Part shown: one piece after another, positions 20,572 through 25,378 of the stretch
Layout: each line of letters starts with the position of its first letter
How positions within the stretch are numbered: position 1 is the stretch's first letter
DNA from: a virus
Direction: 5' to 3' (one strand)
IMG/VR virus record: IMGVR_UViG_3300003322_000423
Span: 34,590-98,589 of that record
DNA: 64,000 nt
The notes under the pieces: generated by a model
Database searches by the model: none
Told to the model about the DNA's origin: nothing
Seen by the model: only the letters and a program-made list of their open reading frames with translations
Program-made: the position numbers and the translations under genes

Positions 20572-20617
20572 TTGCCCGGTTTTTGTGTATACCTGAACCG
20601 TGGTGACAAAACAGGTA

Positions 20618-20691
20618 GTGGAGATGACAGGACTCGAACCCGCCGCCTTCTGCGTGCAAAGCAGACGCTCTTCCCGATGAGCTACATCCCC
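20618..20691 (-). tRNA. tRNA-Ala (TGC)
   Basis: Cloverleaf, G3.U70, loop TTTGCAC. Confidence 0.92.
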
Positions 20692-20747
20692 AAACCAGGT
20701 TTTTGATAACGCAGAACCCCGTCTCCCGAAAACTGCGTGTCTAAGTG

Positions 20748-21863
20748 TTATTCGTTGCAATTACAGTCTAATTGTAGCGGAGGTTCCCAGATTTGTCCAT
20801 CCCCTGGAACCTGCGATTTAGGCTGATAGTCCAGCGGACTGAACAACAGATTTGCATTCGTCTCGTTACGTGTACCAAGCCATAGATCTACACCTTGATA
20901 TGGTACACCGTCGACCACGCTGACTGTTCTGGGCTGTCCGCCACATGAGGCCCCGTTGAAGATGCGACGCCCGTATACCGGCGCACCCCAACCGACGTTC
21001 CCGGGAGCTGTCCAGCCGCTGTAGAGACTGGAACTAGTGGCATATCCGATCGGGGTACCTGCACAGTAGCCGCATCCCTGATCAGAATATGTTATCACAT
21101 ATTCCTGTGATCTTTCATCCCAGAAACCGCCGGGACCTTCCGTATGACTCAGACTTGCCACATTCGTGACACCTAGAGCCGTCCCCCCGCTACCCCAGTA
21201 ATTCAATTGCTGGATATTCATTCCAGTATTGCCGGGAAGAGTGCAGATGATAGCTGGTGGTCCGGAGCGAGCCTGGATTATACCGAAGTCCCCGTTGCCC
21301 GTACAGATACTCAGATTAGGTTTGTTGTATGAGCCCCAGGGCTTTCCTGCATTAGGCCCACAAGGTCCGGCAGGCCCGTTGCATCCCATAACGTTATACC
21401 CGCTCTGGGCGCCGTCAGACTTGTGCCTAGGGGCGTTGAACCAGAGTATGAACGCGCCGTCGTTGTGGCCCCAGCCTGTACGCTGGATCATCCGAGGATT
21501 GAAACATCCCTGGCCGGTACCACCACACGTGGTCTGCCACGAAACCTTCTTGTACGGGTCCTGTTCGTTAGGGTTGAACAACAGCTTAGGTTCAGACCAT
21601 GGACCCTCTATGCTCTGGGAGGTGCTCACACCGAAGCCACAGAAAGGTGTGTTTTTGATACTCCACTGGAAACCACATTTGTACATGGTTCCGTACAGGT
21701 AATAGGTGTTCCCGAACTTGGCTAAATGTCCATCGTGAAGATCTACACCCTGAATGTTCAGAGGTCTAGGATCAGACTGAGTCTCGGCGTTTACAGGTCC
21801 GGAAAATAAAAATACAGTTGCCGTTACGACAACTGCGACAAGTAATCTATATAGCCGTTTCAC
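20748..21863 (-). CDS. secreted glycoside hydrolase, GH43-like beta-propeller
   Basis: Signal peptide; DLHDG....FG.TYYLYGT, FNPR, EGP. Confidence 0.6.
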   Translation of the reverse strand: MKRLYRLLVAVVVTATVFLFSGPVNAETQSDPRPLNIQGVDLHDGHLAKFGNTYYLYGTMYKCGFQWSIKNTPFCGFGVSTSQSIEGPWSEPKLLFNPNEQDPYKKVSWQTTCGGTGQGCFNPRMIQRTGWGHNDGAFILWFNAPRHKSDGAQSGYNVMGCNGPAGPCGPNAGKPWGSYNKPNLSICTGNGDFGIIQARSGPPAIICTLPGNTGMNIQQLNYWGSGGTALGVTNVASLSHTEGPGGFWDERSQEYVITYSDQGCGYCAGTPIGYATSSSLYSGWTAPGNVGWGAPVYGRRIFNGASCGGQPRTVSVVDGVPYQGVDLWLGTRNETNANLLFSPLDYQPKSQVPGDGQIWEPPLQLDCNCNE

Positions 21864-21884
21864 TGCCCTCTCCTAATAGATAAG

Positions 21885-21958
21885 TAGGCCCGTCGGGATT
21901 TGAACCCGCATCACCTGTATATAAGACAGGCGCTCTTACCTGATTGAGCTACAGGCCC
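21885..21958 (-). tRNA. tRNA-Ile (TAT)
   Basis: Cloverleaf, CCTGT-CTTATAT-ACAGG. Confidence 0.88.
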
Positions 21959-22133
21959 ATTGACACTAACCAAGTCTAGGTGTCTGTCCGTGTCATCTGT
22001 CTCCGACTACCGGCTTGTCACTTGGAAATTCTCTCTGATCCGGATGACACTTCGTCCAGAGAACGGGCCTGTGTCGTGGCCCCAGTGCTTGCAGTATCTT
22101 ACTGACAGATGGTGTTCAGACTTACAAGCAAAG

Positions 22134-22218
22134 CGGAAGCGGTGGGACTCGAACCCACAAGGATTGGTTACCCAGCCGCTTTCAAGGCGGTGTATCTCTC
22201 CCATGTGACAGCACTTCC
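22134..22218 (-). tRNA. tRNA-Ser (TGA)
   Basis: Long variable arm, loop CTTGAAA. Confidence 0.85.
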
Positions 22219-22221
22219 AGG

Positions 22222-22614
22222 TTACTTCTTAAATCTTTGCCATGTTCGTTCTCTGTGGCAATTAGAACAAACCAAATCACACTTAGCTATTTCGGCTTTG
22301 ATATCTTCAACTGTAGCATGTCTATAGGTGATACCTATGTTGAATAACTTAATCTCATCAGGTCTGTGATCAAAATCCATAACATAGTGGGGGTACTGAA
22401 CGCCACAATCCATACAGGGCTTACCCGCCTTGTAGTCTTGGATGAATTGACGCTTTTCACCCCGCCTAACATGCTGTCTCGATATATTCTTATTCTTTTG
22501 ATCTACGCCACAGTAGTAGGACACAGTGGATTTAGAACATCCTAGTTCCTTAGCTATAGCGTTGTACGTGTAGCCAGCTTCTCTTAACCTAAAGATATCT
22601 GCCTCATATGTCAT
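22222..22614 (-). CDS. HTH + HNH homing endonuclease
   Basis: IAKELGCSKSTV; CMDCG..DFDH..C..VCSNCH. Confidence 0.85.
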   Translation of the reverse strand: MTYEADIFRLREAGYTYNAIAKELGCSKSTVSYYCGVDQKNKNISRQHVRRGEKRQFIQDYKAGKPCMDCGVQYPHYVMDFDHRPDEIKLFNIGITYRHATVEDIKAEIAKCDLVCSNCHRERTWQRFKK

Positions 22615-22637
22615 GAGGCAAGTATATCAAAGGTTCG

Positions 22638-22711
22638 AGGCCATTACCAGGATCGAACTGGTCCAATGTAGATTTGCAGTCTACCGCTTACTTCCAGCAA
22701 GCTCAATGGCC
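22638..22711 (-). tRNA. tRNA-Cys (GCA)
   Basis: Cloverleaf, U73, loop CTGCAAA. Confidence 0.88.
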
Positions 22712-22715
22712 ATTA

Positions 22716-22772
22716 GGTGCAGGTGCCGGGACTCGAACCCGGGAGTCATGACCTCCGACCGTCATCGCACCA
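22716..22772 (-). ncRNA. truncated tRNA-like RNA (one arm missing)
   Basis: Perfect T-arm CCGGG-TTCGAGT-CCCGG, one further hairpin, short closing stem. Confidence 0.5.
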
Positions 22773-22779
22773 TTCCCAG

Positions 22780-22864
22780 CGGAAATGACAGGATTCGAAC
22801 CTGCGGACCTGTTACAGTCTCTGCTTTAGCAAAACAGTGCTTTCACCCACTCAGCCACATTTCC
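22780..22864 (-). tRNA. tRNA-Ser (GCT)
   Basis: Long variable arm, loop TTGCTAA. Confidence 0.9.
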
Positions 22865-22867
22865 ATG

Positions 22868-23763: not shown

Positions 23764-23764
23764 G

Positions 23765-23838
23765 CTCCCGATCTATGACTCGAACATAGAACCTCTGCGT
23801 CCAGAGCGCAGCGCAACTACCAATTGTGCTAATCGGGA
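23765..23838 (-). tRNA. tRNA-Gln (CTG)
   Basis: Cloverleaf, U1-A72, loop CTCTGGA. Confidence 0.9.
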
Positions 23839-23957
23839 TTGATTCAGTTATAAGACCTTACTACCCGACGACCTCGTGCCGCCCTAACCTAACCATGAAC
23901 GAGAGGGGTTGCAACCACTGTGACATCTCGTTCCCCTACTTTCCTCGTAAGGTCTCG

Positions 23958-24044
23958 CTCAGGTGGCTGGAATTGAACCAGCGAAGGATTTCTCCGAAAC
24001 GGTTAACAGCCGCACCCAACATCGCCAACGGTTGGCCCACCTGA
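23958..24044 (-). tRNA. atypical tRNA-Asn (GTT)
   Basis: Loop CTGTTAA; extended D-arm and an extra variable-arm hairpin. Confidence 0.75.
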
Positions 24045-24049
24045 TCGCT

Positions 24050-24475
24050 TTATGCAATTATATCTGAACCCGAGTACAACCCTGTTCGGTACAGACGCTT
24101 TGCGGTCTTACACCTATCACATCTACAGGTCATCTCGTGATACATTCTAGCAGTGCCGTGGTAGTATTCACCTCGAATACCTTTATTCCAAGGCGTGATG
24201 GCACCGTCTCTCCACTGCTGTTTAGTCTTTTCATCATGACAAGTTTTACACACTACTTCACACTTGTCAAGTTCTTCTAGAATACTTTTCCAGGATCTAT
24301 CTAAACCCGCCCCGGATAAAGTAAACGACTTTGTAGTGGGGTCTTTGTGGTTAAGCTCTAAATCATCAGGACTGCCACAGTCTACGCATTCACTACCGGA
24401 CAGGTCAAATAATTTTTGTCGACGTGTTTTACGTCGATTGGCCATATAGGTCTTCATATATTCGTTAGTAGGCAT
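24050..24475 (-). CDS. HNH homing endonuclease
   Basis: CVDCG..LELNH..CEVVCKTCH; C-terminal HGT..Y..CRC..C. Confidence 0.85.
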   Translation of the reverse strand: MPTNEYMKTYMANRRKTRRQKLFDLSGSECVDCGSPDDLELNHKDPTTKSFTLSGAGLDRSWKSILEELDKCEVVCKTCHDEKTKQQWRDGAITPWNKGIRGEYYHGTARMYHEMTCRCDRCKTAKRLYRTGLYSGSDIIA

Positions 24476-24513
24476 ACATTCATTTTAACATGAAATGCTC
24501 TACCAGTAAAGAG

Positions 24514-24584
24514 CAGGCCCAGAAAGAGTCGAACTTTCCCTTTGAGACTTGGAAACTCATGTGCTTCCGATACACTATGGACCC
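24514..24584 (-). tRNA. tRNA-Trp (CCA)
   Basis: Cloverleaf, loop TTCCAAG. Confidence 0.82.
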
Positions 24585-24628
24585 GTGAGAGACCATGATA
24601 ACACATAGTCTCTGTTTTGTCTATTCTG

Positions 24629-24698
24629 CCGGGATACTGGGATTCGAACCCAGGTAGGGCTTCAGGGACCCGGTACTTGGCCGCTGTACGATACCCCT
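24629..24698 (-). tRNA. atypical tRNA-Gln (CTG)
   Basis: Loop CCCTGAA (C33), 1:72 mismatch, very short variable loop. Confidence 0.6.
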
Positions 24699-24895
24699 AC
24701 CCACAAGGTCGACTTCTTGCGGGCTCCCCTCAGCGTTTCGAACCGCATTGAGGGGCAACAGAAAACGTGTCAGCTTTCGCTGATCAAACCGGGCACCGAG
24801 GATATCTTAAACCAGACTTCTAATCCCGCAGGACGTTGTCACTGGCTCGGTGCGCCCCCTTGTGCACAGGGCGCTAAGGCGACCCAGGGGGTTTG

Positions 24896-24968
24896 CGCTC
24901 TTGGAGGGATTCGAACCCCCGACCTTGACGATAGAAGCGTCTTGCTCTTTCCACTGAGCTACAAGAGC
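24896..24968 (-). tRNA. tRNA-Arg (TCT)
   Basis: Cloverleaf, loop CTTCTAT. Confidence 0.9.
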
Positions 24969-25034
24969 TTGGAGCCTGCACGTTGCCCTCAATGGCAGGC
25001 TCTATTCAGTTGTATTGACCCATCCTAAGGTCAG

Positions 25035-25109
25035 TACCGGTGACGGGGCTCGAACCCGCGTTCTTCTGACTGAGAATCAGATGAGCTTTGCCAACAGCTC
25101 CACACCGGC
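25035..25109 (-). tRNA. tRNA-Glu (CTC)
   Basis: Cloverleaf, loop TTCTCAG. Confidence 0.87.
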
Positions 25110-25210
25110 AAGCCCACAGCTTTTATTTCGGTACCTTCGGGCTGGAGTTCCCAGGTCTTACTTAGGCTGTGGCGGTATTCCAGAGTTACTTCGAATAGCC
25201 TCTAGAACCG

Positions 25211-25287
25211 TATCCGAGACCGGAATCGAACCGGCGTCTTCTCCTGATTGAAAGTCAGGGCACCCCTGCCAACAGAGTAACTCGGAC
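25211..25287 (-). tRNA. tRNA-Glu (TTC)
   Basis: Cloverleaf, loop CTTTCAA. Confidence 0.85.
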
Positions 25288-25378
25288 TTGGACCGGTTTT
25301 TGTTTCTAACCAGAGCACTCCGGGGGCTACCCGGCACTATACTGGCCCTAATTCAGAACCCGTCCCCGAAACTGAACG

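Follow-up and report, generated by a model that had tools for sequence, protein, structure and literature searches.

A predicted family of small H-type pseudoknots at the borders of RNA units in uncultured phages

In the luteovirus-type -1 frameshifting pseudoknots (BWYV, PLRV) and the telomerase and SAM-II triplex pseudoknots, two coaxial stems are present and the conserved bases are concentrated at their junction. The ENE-type triple helix of MALAT1 and MEN-beta, which are eukaryotic nuclear lncRNAs, clamps a long A-tract between two U-rich strands through about 10 triples. The preQ1-I riboswitch (RF00522) spans about 30-45 nt as an H-type knot whose short second helix is closed by an A-rich 3' tail; its L1 measures 2-3 nt, and its L2 of 4-6 nt holds the C that reads the ligand. 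Coremin (xrRNA-C) and its Watson-Crick variant xrRNA-WCC occur in beny-, cucumo- and other RNA viruses, and coremin, a compact pseudoknot with an A-rich L3, stalls exonuclease and ribosomes (PMC6546385, PMC10520033, PMC10321173). By definition its hairpin has 4 bp and a loop of 4-8 nt (consensus YGAD or YGNNAD), the spacer ends in CUAC, and S2 consists of at most three, partly non-canonical, pairs. HDV-like theta ribozymes start within one base of the 3' end of a phage tRNA or stand isolated between ORFs, in the sense orientation and sometimes in tandem (PMC10879173).

The window analyzed here, a stretch of 64,000 nt from virus record IMGVR_UViG_3300003322_000423, derives from an uncultured phage, probably of an actinobacterial host, that carries an array of 25 tRNAs. 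Three spacers of this array are each occupied by one copy of a putative pseudoknot on the minus strand, with sequences and coordinates exactly as given in the initial annotation. Copy A (20617-20577) would pair UACCUG (20617-20612) with CAGGUA (20595-20590) in stem S1 and CGGUU (20600-20596) with AACCG (20581-20577) in stem S2, with L1 at 20611-20601 and L3, UACACAAA, at 20589-20582. In copy B (20738-20692), S1 is formed by ACGCAG (20738-20733) and CUGCGU (20714-20709), and S2 by AGACGGGGUU (20724-20715) and AACCUGGUUU (20701-20692), L1 occupying 20732-20725 and L3, UAUCAAA, 20708-20702. Copy C (25377-25290) combines GUUCAG (25377-25372) with CUGAAU (25356-25351), and GGACGGGUU (25365-25357) with AACCGGUCC (25298-25290), around an L1 at 25371-25366 and an L3 at 25350-25299 that contains a 40-nt hairpin insert (25347-25308, minus strand); both S2 and this hairpin were present in the minimum-energy fold. 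The 6-bp S1 differs in sequence in each of the three copies with pairing kept, U's open L1 and A's close L3. The core pairing originally proposed for S2, GGUU/AACC, was recovered, but the stem is longer (5-10 bp), and in B and C it holds a G.G mismatch at the identical place. Of the tracts that had been regarded as fixed, the U-run proved frequent and not invariant, and the C preceding the A-run lacks conservation across the family.

Copies B and A enclose tRNA-Ala(UGC) (20618-20691, minus strand; ARAGORN; Rfam 62.6 bits), with a 0-nt gap to B on the 5' side and a 1-nt gap to A on the 3' side. The extended S2 3' strand of B touches +1 of this tRNA (20691), and A begins one base past its discriminator+C, the 3' end being placed at 20618/20619 by ARAGORN and Rfam. 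Upstream, B is preceded at 9 nt by the stop codon of a 371-aa ORF (20748-21863, minus strand), for which there was no PHROG family and, in Pfam, only a weak, sub-threshold GH43-like match. Copy A ends 3-5 nt upstream of a tmRNA-like tRNA domain, or mini-tmRNA (20571-20492, minus strand; Rfam tmRNA 31.7 bits, below the gathering score), whose counterparts in L135 and L106 scored 60.4 and 43.7 bits with Rfam tmRNA. Copy C begins one base past the discriminator+C of tRNA-Leu(UAG), which lies directly upstream (25378-25454, minus strand; ARAGORN, Rfam), and tRNA-Glu(UUC) (25210-25287, minus strand; ARAGORN, Rfam) begins at 25287, 2 nt after its S2 3' strand. The distance from knot end to the next tRNA or tRNA-like gene in this phage is 0, 2 or 3-5 nt.

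Chance resemblance was excluded by shuffle and independent-model tests. The motif CAAAAACC occurred 8 times against 2.1 expected, and a structural descriptor (S1 of at least 4 bp, UUU, GGU, AAACC, S2 of at least 4 bp) matched three times on the minus strand and not once on the plus strand; in 60 dinucleotide shuffles the mean was 0.33 and a single shuffle (1/60) reached three. A covariance model built from the copies of other phages only, without window sequences (R3), returned B as its first match in the 64-kb window (31.4 bits, E 2.7e-6), C as its second (23.2 bits, E 3.5e-4) and A as its fourth (11 bits, E 0.45). Model R2 scored 31.1 bits on A, which was part of its training set, and 23.5 bits on C, which was in no training set. 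A suspected fourth variant, D (20243-20163, minus strand), is doubtful. Its S2 is a perfect 8 bp (UGACGGUU, 20228-20221, with AACCGUCA, 20170-20163) and it has a C-like inserted hairpin (CUGAGG, 20214-20209, with CCUCAG, 20179-20174), but its S1 is ambiguous, as AGGUCG/CGACCU takes the acceptor strand of tRNA-Asp and the alternative GAGG/CCUC requires a 3-nt L2, and it was missed by R2 at E≤5 and by R3 at E≤10. No further copies were found in the whole 98.6-kb virus record.

Homologues were present in other phages, and the H-type pseudoknot proposed by the initial annotation was borne out by compensatory changes in both stems. The absence of further covarying homologues, which that annotation had named as a refutation, is thereby contradicted. 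Among 16 long-form copies, 93% of cells pair versus 79% in shuffles, and the covariation score was 0.361 against 0.094, a value reached by 0/500 shuffles, slid controls giving at most 0.11; free S1 and S2 pairs each showed 4-5 pair types. For the minimal form (18 copies) the score was 0.226 against 0.081. At free pair positions, G.U pairs outnumbered A.C mismatches 11 to 1, which places the RNA on the gene strand. Comparative analysis has thus shown the predicted H-type fold of the family, and copies A, B and C were confirmed as true members. S1 measures 4-8 bp in long-form copies and 2-4 bp in minimal ones, S2 follows directly with no linker (0-2 nt) across the family, L1 mostly opens with UUU and L3 closes with A's. 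The conserved bases (C-A/U-G, UUU, GGUU, AAA-AACC) are clustered where the two stacked helices meet and, together with the U-rich L1 and A-rich L3, would fit a triplex-type knot. The minimal form, of about 27 nt, is placed immediately behind tRNA-Leu(CAG) in relatives whose PolA is about 50% identical, and many phages carry it between genes. We infer from architecture and position that both forms belong to one family; no cross-detection occurred between their models. The L341 copy shares with B the same L1/S2 loop and the same place before tRNA-Ala(UGC).

As judged from sequence, many uncultured phages place this family at RNA-unit borders, namely behind stop codons and tRNAs or shortly ahead of a tRNA. 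Rfam 15 contained no family matching the pseudoknot, in keeping with its initial description as unrecognised, and no paper describing it was found in the literature, so that the family is, by these searches, uncatalogued. In other phages about 2-16 nt separate the end of the knot from a following tRNA, often where an ORF gives way to a tRNA block (L341, L328, L326, L185 at 15971 and L268). In five clear cases from four phages (copies A and C, L185, L106, L184) its start coincides with tRNA position 75, with which D is compatible only via its alternative S1. At gene ends the distance from the preceding stop codon is mostly 2-22 nt for the minimal form and 9-52 nt for the long form, outliers standing at about 100-145 nt, and the next start follows 9-150 nt downstream. 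The suspected link to tRNAs holds for A, B and C but is only partly general: the majority of the family sits between protein genes, well away from tRNAs. The genes beside the copies are not related to one another (RecT, major head protein, anti-restriction protein, unknowns), which makes the knot a generic boundary element and not a gene-specific regulator.

The reading tentatively preferred, at a probability of roughly 0.42, is that the knot forms a nuclease-resistant end-cap or roadblock where RNA units meet, in line with the 3'-end stabiliser exposed by RNase P that the initial annotation had suggested; the stalling of an exonuclease and of ribosomes by coremin is a precedent. It would be a mechanically stable plug: were the tRNA array made as one precursor transcript, a 0-5 nt tail would remain on the knot once RNase P had cut at +1 of the following tRNA. 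The 3'-to-5' exonucleases PNPase, RNase II and RNase R need a longer tail than this to engage, and the upstream piece would therefore be capped. B would cap the mRNA of the ORF at 20748-21863, A and C the tRNA precursor pending endonucleolytic 3' trimming, and at ordinary gene ends of other phages the knot would halt exonucleases within a few bases of the stop codon. Against an end-cap, capping the trailer of an upstream tRNA (A, C) would bring no obvious benefit, the cap needs removal before the tRNA works, and the exact position-75 start is more suggestive of a processing site than of a plug with loose placement. In addition, all copies of this phage lie inside the tRNA array and none at an ordinary gene end.

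The observed positions would fit a block to 5'-to-3' enzymes equally well. Such a bacterial counterpart of viral xrRNA, which we consider unlikely, would halt RNase J, Rho and scanning or terminating ribosomes arriving from upstream and shield the downstream tRNA, mini-tmRNA or next cistron. A functional RNA directly follows each copy, and the probable actinobacterial host belongs to a group that possesses RNase J; coremin-type knots of similar size and L3 are also barriers to Xrn1 and ribosomes approaching from 5' (PMC10520033, PMC10321173). However, tRNAs would lose the knot to RNase P in any case, its position tends to be closer to the upstream stop than to the downstream start (some copies depart from this), and the defining features of coremin are absent. 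The confinement of this phage's copies to the array, the tight enclosure of tRNA-Ala and the position-75 starts could instead point to a processing guide or folding insulator, preventing pairing of leaders or trailers with neighbour tRNAs or positioning and timing RNase P and the 3' endonuclease. This is quite unlikely, given that a knot occupies just 3-4 of about 25 spacers and that the majority of the family is distant from tRNAs; a helix abutting +1 is, moreover, expected to hinder RNase P, not to help it.

The theta-like genomic habits and the strongly conserved junction bases in a very small RNA would also suit a self-cleaving ribozyme of different fold that cuts at its own 5' edge, freeing the tRNA 3' end or separating cistrons. 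This functional analogue is improbable: HDV-like threading is impossible because the P2 and P1 strands have no P3/L3 between them, the C that might serve in catalysis is not conserved, Rfam gave no matching ribozyme family, and catalysis by a 27-45-nt H-type knot has no known precedent. A ligand aptamer, sensing for example a nucleobase such as preQ1, would account for the preQ1-I-like size and topology, for the tandem copies in L265 and L267 and for the flanking helix covering the ribosome-binding site of the next gene in L347, L357, L335 and L265. It found no support and is very improbable, since downstream genes are not common to the copies, knots stand in front of tRNAs, L2 has only 0-2 nt, and RF00522 and other riboswitch models gave no match at E≤10. 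A type III antitoxin mimic, a DNA-level repeat and chance resemblance are disfavoured almost to the point of dismissal. Type III antitoxins are pseudoknotted repeats and their mimicry by phages is known, but here the copies are dispersed (C lies 4.6 kb from A and B) with no identical head-to-tail units, and the ORF next to B gave no PHROG family and no above-threshold Pfam family. A DNA-level or chance origin is opposed by stems that vary among copies yet still pair, and by the G.U excess.

Compared with known systems, the phage knot resembles preQ1-I in its overall topology but differs in its linker and in having no RF00522 match or queuosine-related gene context. Like the MALAT1/MEN-beta triple helix, it is an A-rich/U-rich structure immediately 5' of an RNase P site (there mascRNA, tRNA-like), and therefore would form the new 3' end of the upstream RNA; unlike MALAT1, it has one U-run of 3-4 plus the UU of GGUU, allowing 2-3 triples at most, and sits in a phage operon. 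With theta ribozymes it shares its placement and a hairpin that may be inserted after the P1/S1 3' strand, with a C/A-rich joiner leading from it to the last strand, but it lacks P3/L3 and P1.1 and hence the nested double pseudoknot, and it has no Rfam HDV match. As in the BWYV/PLRV and telomerase/SAM-II knots, the A-rich L3 would be positioned for the S1 minor groove and the U-rich L1 for the major groove, over the U-A pairs on the S2 side of the junction; unlike luteovirus frameshifters, the copies stand in untranslated spacers with no slippery site or overlapping frame, and the stem proportions of BWYV are reversed, S2 being long. It departs from coremin in its S1 loop (15-18 nt in A, B and C, about 11 nt in the minimal form, with U's first and GGUU last), in an S2 of 5-10 Watson-Crick pairs and in its source, a DNA phage of bacteria, which lack Xrn1, its nuclease resistance being putative. 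With coremin it nevertheless shares a very small H-type knot whose S2 5' strand passes to the S1 3' strand without a linker, a short A-rich L3 of the U-A/U-AAA(C) type running straight into the S2 3' strand, untranslated or intergenic sites that are sometimes repeated, and a helix often directly after, here a tRNA acceptor stem.

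The three pseudoknot copies A (20617-20577), B (20738-20692) and C (25377-25290) lie on the minus strand of the tRNA array, and their sequences as first described matched the window exactly. Copy A makes up the whole spacer between tRNA-Ala and a mini-tmRNA, copy C the whole spacer between tRNA-Leu(UAG) and tRNA-Glu(UUC), and copy B extends from 9 nt past the stop codon of a 371-aa ORF in the array (20748-21863, minus strand) up to the first base of tRNA-Ala. Both A and C start at tRNA position 75, the base after the discriminator and a C. The first stem, S1, differs in each copy and pairs in all of them (UACCUG/CAGGUA in A, ACGCAG/CUGCGU in B and GUUCAG/CUGAAU in C). 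For the second stem, S2, the GGUU/AACC core proposed in the initial annotation was retained, but the stem proved longer than was given there in all three copies: CGGUU pairs with AACCG in A, AGACGGGGUU with AACCUGGUUU in B and GGACGGGUU with AACCGGUCC in C, and a G.G mismatch occupies the equivalent position of B and C. The S1 loops are 15-18 nt long, starting with UUU and ending with GGUU; the GGUU abuts the 3' arm of S1, leaving an L2 of 0 nt. The loop preceding the 3' strand of S2 (L3) reaches 52 nt in copy C, where it contains an inserted hairpin. A structural descriptor of the motif returned these three minus-strand matches in the window and none on the plus strand, against a mean of 0.33 in dinucleotide shuffles, and CAAAAACC was fourfold over-represented in the window. 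Plain minimum-energy folds gave ordinary z-scores (-0.03 to -0.6), which are expected for pseudoknots and therefore uninformative here. No further copies were found in the whole 98.6-kb record; in other records the long form is present once or twice.

A fourth variant had also been suspected at 20243-20163 (minus strand; copy D). In agreement with this suggestion, D has a hairpin insert placed as in C and a perfect 8-bp S2 that includes GGUU/AACC. Its S1 is ambiguous, and it was detected by none of the covariance models, including R3 (described below). D is regarded as a possible degenerate relative. A look-alike at 34294-34240 was dismissed as chance, as it lies inside an ORF, lacks the U-start and is matched by no model. 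A partial match to the 3' half of the knot (GUUCUGGGAUAACAAAAAC) was seen at 59437-59455 on the minus strand (R3, 14.3-14.8 bits, E 0.065); it has no recognisable S1 or S2 extension and is probably chance as well.

Homologues were sought in other uncultured phage contigs, designated by L-numbers. Contigs with about 50% PolA identity and tRNA arrays of their own were drawn in through the alignment of PolA relatives. Three of these (L185, L106 and L184) contain a version of about 27 nt that begins at position 75 of tRNA-Leu(CAG), and L185 has in addition a longer copy ending 9 nt 5' of tRNA-Phe. In this minimal form, exemplified by GCCG-UUUG-UGGGU-AU-CGGC-AUAA-ACCC, S1 and S2 change together across phages, and its consensus, CG-UUUG-NNGGU-AU-CG-NAUAA-ACCNN, was built into a covariance model (R1). 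An exact-pattern scan of IMG/VR for the minimal form returned 39 loci, about half of which are intergenic, have the orientation of the neighbouring genes and covary at the free S2 positions (GC/GC, CC/GG, UU/AA, AC/GU and CU/AG), whereas the matches within ORFs showed no covariation. The covariation score of 18 minimal copies was 0.226, compared with 0.081 in shuffles. In bacterial genomes, the minimal pattern was matched 97 times against about 52 expected, with an extended S2 in 13 cases only, and the minimal variant is therefore considered essentially viral and rare in bacterial genomes. Applied to the window and to the whole record, R1 found nothing at E<=5. The minimal and long forms nevertheless appear to be akin, to judge from their common architecture, their junction bases and their position behind tRNAs in the relatives.

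The long form was scanned for with the pattern CAG-UUU...GGUU-CUG...AAAACC, which gave 45 distinct matches, nine with at least 5 extra contiguous pairs where 1.3 were expected under a geometric null. Among these nine are L347, whose S1 is identical to that of B, and L341, which has the L1/S2 loop of B and C and, like B, precedes a tRNA-Ala(UGC). As the slid-partner control on the raw scan matches was noisy (10/135 versus 9/45), significance was judged instead by the geometric null, by the covariation of 16 copies and by the model R3. In the 16 copies, 93% of cells were paired (79% in shuffles), and the covariation score was 0.361 compared with 0.094 in shuffles, none of 500 scoring as high, and with at most 0.11 in slid controls. 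Each free pair of the long-form stems is represented by 4-5 pair types, and at the free pair positions there are 11 G.U pairs for each A.C mismatch, from which the strand of the RNA follows. R3 was built from 14 long-form copies of other phages, without any window sequence. In the window it ranked B first (31.4 bits, E 2.7e-6) and C, which was in no training set, second in spite of its 52-nt L3 (23.2 bits, E 3.5e-4); A came fourth (11 bits, E 0.45), its low score being due to a reversed junction pair (CUG/CAG). Scanning without the U-run requirement recovered more copies (L474, L478, L498, L486 and L079), and UUU thus opens L1 in most, not all, members of the family. The matches of a first IMG/VR scan, with GGTTCNGNNNTAN{1,4}CAAAAACC, had been nearly all chance, L079 being afterwards judged a real copy. 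The H-type fold put forward in the initial annotation is thereby both supported and extended: both stems are kept through compensatory changes, and a model derived from other phages matches B and C. No family in Rfam 15 touches any copy, either in the window at E up to 10 or at 19 other loci, and the literature search found no paper on such a phage element. A, B and C represent a long-stem variant of a widespread, uncatalogued family of phage pseudoknots.

The phage itself is represented by an IMG/VR virus record of 98.6 kb, of which the window (51% G+C) is the 3' two-thirds, with genes for a primase, PolA, a helicase, a tailspike and endolysins. A tblastn search with PolA against isolated phages revealed no close isolate (identity 26% or less); the PolA fragments of the closest relatives are 74-86% identical. 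An actinobacterial host is inferred to be likely, as the sole megablast match of the array to isolated phages was tRNA-Lys, 97% identical in Streptomyces phages, and a close PolA fragment carries the label Actinobacteria. ARAGORN called 25 tRNA genes on the minus strand in 19864-26663. In 22 of these 25 a C directly follows the discriminator, and in none of the 22 is CCA encoded, which suggests a uniform rule of 3' processing or CCA completion in this phage. Two weak matches to the tRNA model that ARAGORN did not call, at 24629-24698 (29 bits) and 22942-23017 (20 bits), both on the minus strand, are candidates for degenerate tRNAs or tRNA-like RNAs within the array. Two HNH homing-endonuclease genes lie among the tRNAs (22222-22614 and 24050-24475, minus strand), and in L185 an HNH-like ORF likewise sits within a tRNA spacer. 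The mini-tmRNA is a tmRNA-like tRNA domain of about 80 nt (20571-20492, minus strand; 31.7 bits, below the Rfam cut-off). It has counterparts in L135 (3043-3125, 60.4 bits), L106 (7631-7711, 43.7 bits) and L341 (about 6515-6595, minus strand); a tmRNA reduced to its tRNA-like domain is kept in phages with about 50% PolA identity, always inside the tRNA array.

Across the family, the genes flanking the knot are unrelated. The knot tends to follow a stop codon closely, mostly at 2-22 nt (minimal form) or 9-52 nt (long form), although a few outliers are found near 100-145 nt, and behind a tRNA it starts exactly one base past the discriminator; the distance to the next start codon is 9-150 nt and, in other phages, that to the next tRNA about 2-16 nt. 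Several copies lie where a protein gene gives way to a tRNA block, and tandem copies occur in L265 and L267. In L347 (about 3440-3520, minus strand), L357 (about 3010-3090, minus strand), L335 (about 3920-4000, minus strand) and L265 (2150-2250), one knot or two tandem knots are enclosed by a helix formed between the bases just past the upstream stop codon and the next gene's ribosome-binding site, which is covered by its 3' arm; the whole resembles a hairpin for translational coupling that carries the knot at its apex. One minimal knot (L286, 1291-1325, minus strand) lies within a permuted tmRNA gene predicted by ARAGORN in a phage tRNA array (1104-1484, tag GARTEMAIAA). The tRNA-Leu(CAG) knot is followed by a conserved sequence (...GAUCA...UUCGAAAAAGCGU-GGU-CUGG...) in L185 (15420-15560), L106 (7235-7330) and L184 (15105-15200), which may be a further small RNA. 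In the relatives with about 50% PolA identity, another conserved non-coding stretch (...GGGAGGAAC/AAG...CUUGAGAACU-AACAG-GUG) is found just 5' of the first array tRNA (L106, about 6250-6400; L185, about 14540-14690; L184, about 14550-14700; L135, about 2360-2510). In L106 it includes GGAGGAAAGUCCG, which recalls RNase P RNA; it gave no Rfam match at E<=1 in the two loci scanned, L106 and L135, and is absent from the window.

The conserved bases of the family cluster where S1 and S2 stack, where the U's of L1 would lie over U-A pairs of S2 and the A's of L3 beside the C-A/U-G end of S1. Such an arrangement is that of the triplex-stabilised pseudoknots of telomerase RNA, SAM-II and the luteoviral frameshifters, and by analogy a mechanically tough plug is plausible. 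We prefer to regard the knot as a putative RNA end-cap. RNase P cutting at the next tRNA would leave 0-5 nt behind the window knots, a tail insufficient for the binding of PNPase, RNase II or RNase R, for which reason B is proposed to lend stability to the message that precedes it, and A and C to retain tRNA precursors for endonucleolytic 3' trimming. A putative block to RNase J, ribosomes or Rho, acting 5' to 3', would account for the knot positions about as well as the end-cap. A putative processing or self-cleaving role is kept alive by the exact start at tRNA position 75. In its strongest version, which we consider a long shot, the knot would be a new class of very small self-cleaving RNA, or would direct cleavage at its own 5' edge, making tRNA 3' ends at 74/75 and cutting polycistronic messages. 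Threading onto the HDV-like theta ribozyme drz-Mtgn-1 (PMC10879173) failed, there being no P3/L3 between the P2 5' and P1 3' strands, and the invariant catalytic C that opens J4/2 in these ribozymes has no conserved counterpart: a C stands 5' of the A-run in the three window copies but not in L335, L305, L342 and others. Hammerhead and pistol ribozymes were likewise rejected by threading.

Sigma-70-like hexamers occur in the motif, but as promoter elements their spacing would be broken by the 52-nt insert of C and the would-be -10 is unconserved; a T-loop or tRNA remnant would explain GGUUC, but the bases that follow are unlike UUCRANY and covary as a stem. A -1 frameshift stimulator, taken to call for a slippery heptamer 5-9 nt upstream within overlapping reading frames, was rejected as no such setting exists: A and C lie between tRNAs, and B begins 9 nt past a stop codon and is followed by a tRNA. 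The suggestion of a type III (ToxI-like) antitoxin mimic found no support, since such antitoxins are head-to-tail identical repeats beside an endoribonuclease toxin gene, whereas A, B and C are dispersed with different stems and, in searches of PHROG and Pfam, the neighbouring 371-aa ORF matched no PHROG family and gave only a sub-threshold GH43 Pfam match. Nor was a ligand aptamer borne out in the case of preQ1-I: the RF00522 model gave no match at E<=10 on 19800-26800, and L2, which carries the ligand-reading C in preQ1-I, is 0 nt in the window knots.

Should the family be what it seems, a triplex-type pseudoknot of 27-45 nt would be standard transcript punctuation in DNA phages of many hosts; if true, this would account for the conversion of long phage precursors, among them arrays in which tRNAs are mixed with protein genes, into stable individual RNAs, and synthetic biologists would gain a very small, portable end-cap or insulator for RNA. 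A curated covariance model with the covariation found here would be useful in itself, and the window contributes the long-stem variant, copies whose L3 holds an inserted hairpin, and a tRNA with a knot on either side.

Among known systems, preQ1-I, coremin, the type III antitoxins and the frameshifters all differ from the knot in one or more of their defining features. A resemblance to the MALAT1-type triple helix may be partial: the window knots end 0-5 nt before the next tRNA or tRNA-like gene, as the RNase P site of a MALAT1-type element would need, and they have one U-run, whereas in the MALAT1-type ENE two U-rich strands clamp the A-tract. Coremin/xrRNA-C, which stalls Xrn1 in vitro, shares with the boundary knot a no-linker H-type layout and a U/A-AAA(C) L3. 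Its hp1 loop, however, has 4-8 nt with the consensus YGAD or YGNNAD (PMC10520033), which the S1 loops of the window, UUU...GGUU, do not match; its spacer GUUAAACUAC requires CUAC, and the window spacers UAUCAAAAACC and UACACAAAAACC resemble it solely in the A-rich ...AAAC. Coremin-like cores (GACNNNAAAC) occurred in the window at chance level. Where coremin has a second hairpin downstream, a tRNA acceptor helix follows the window knots after 0-5 nt, and other family members do not regularly have a hairpin nearby. Were the cleaving reading true, the task of the theta ribozymes would have been solved a second time with an unrelated structure; if the family is what it seems, the nuclease-resistant knots of eukaryotic RNA viruses would have a parallel in the bacterial world.
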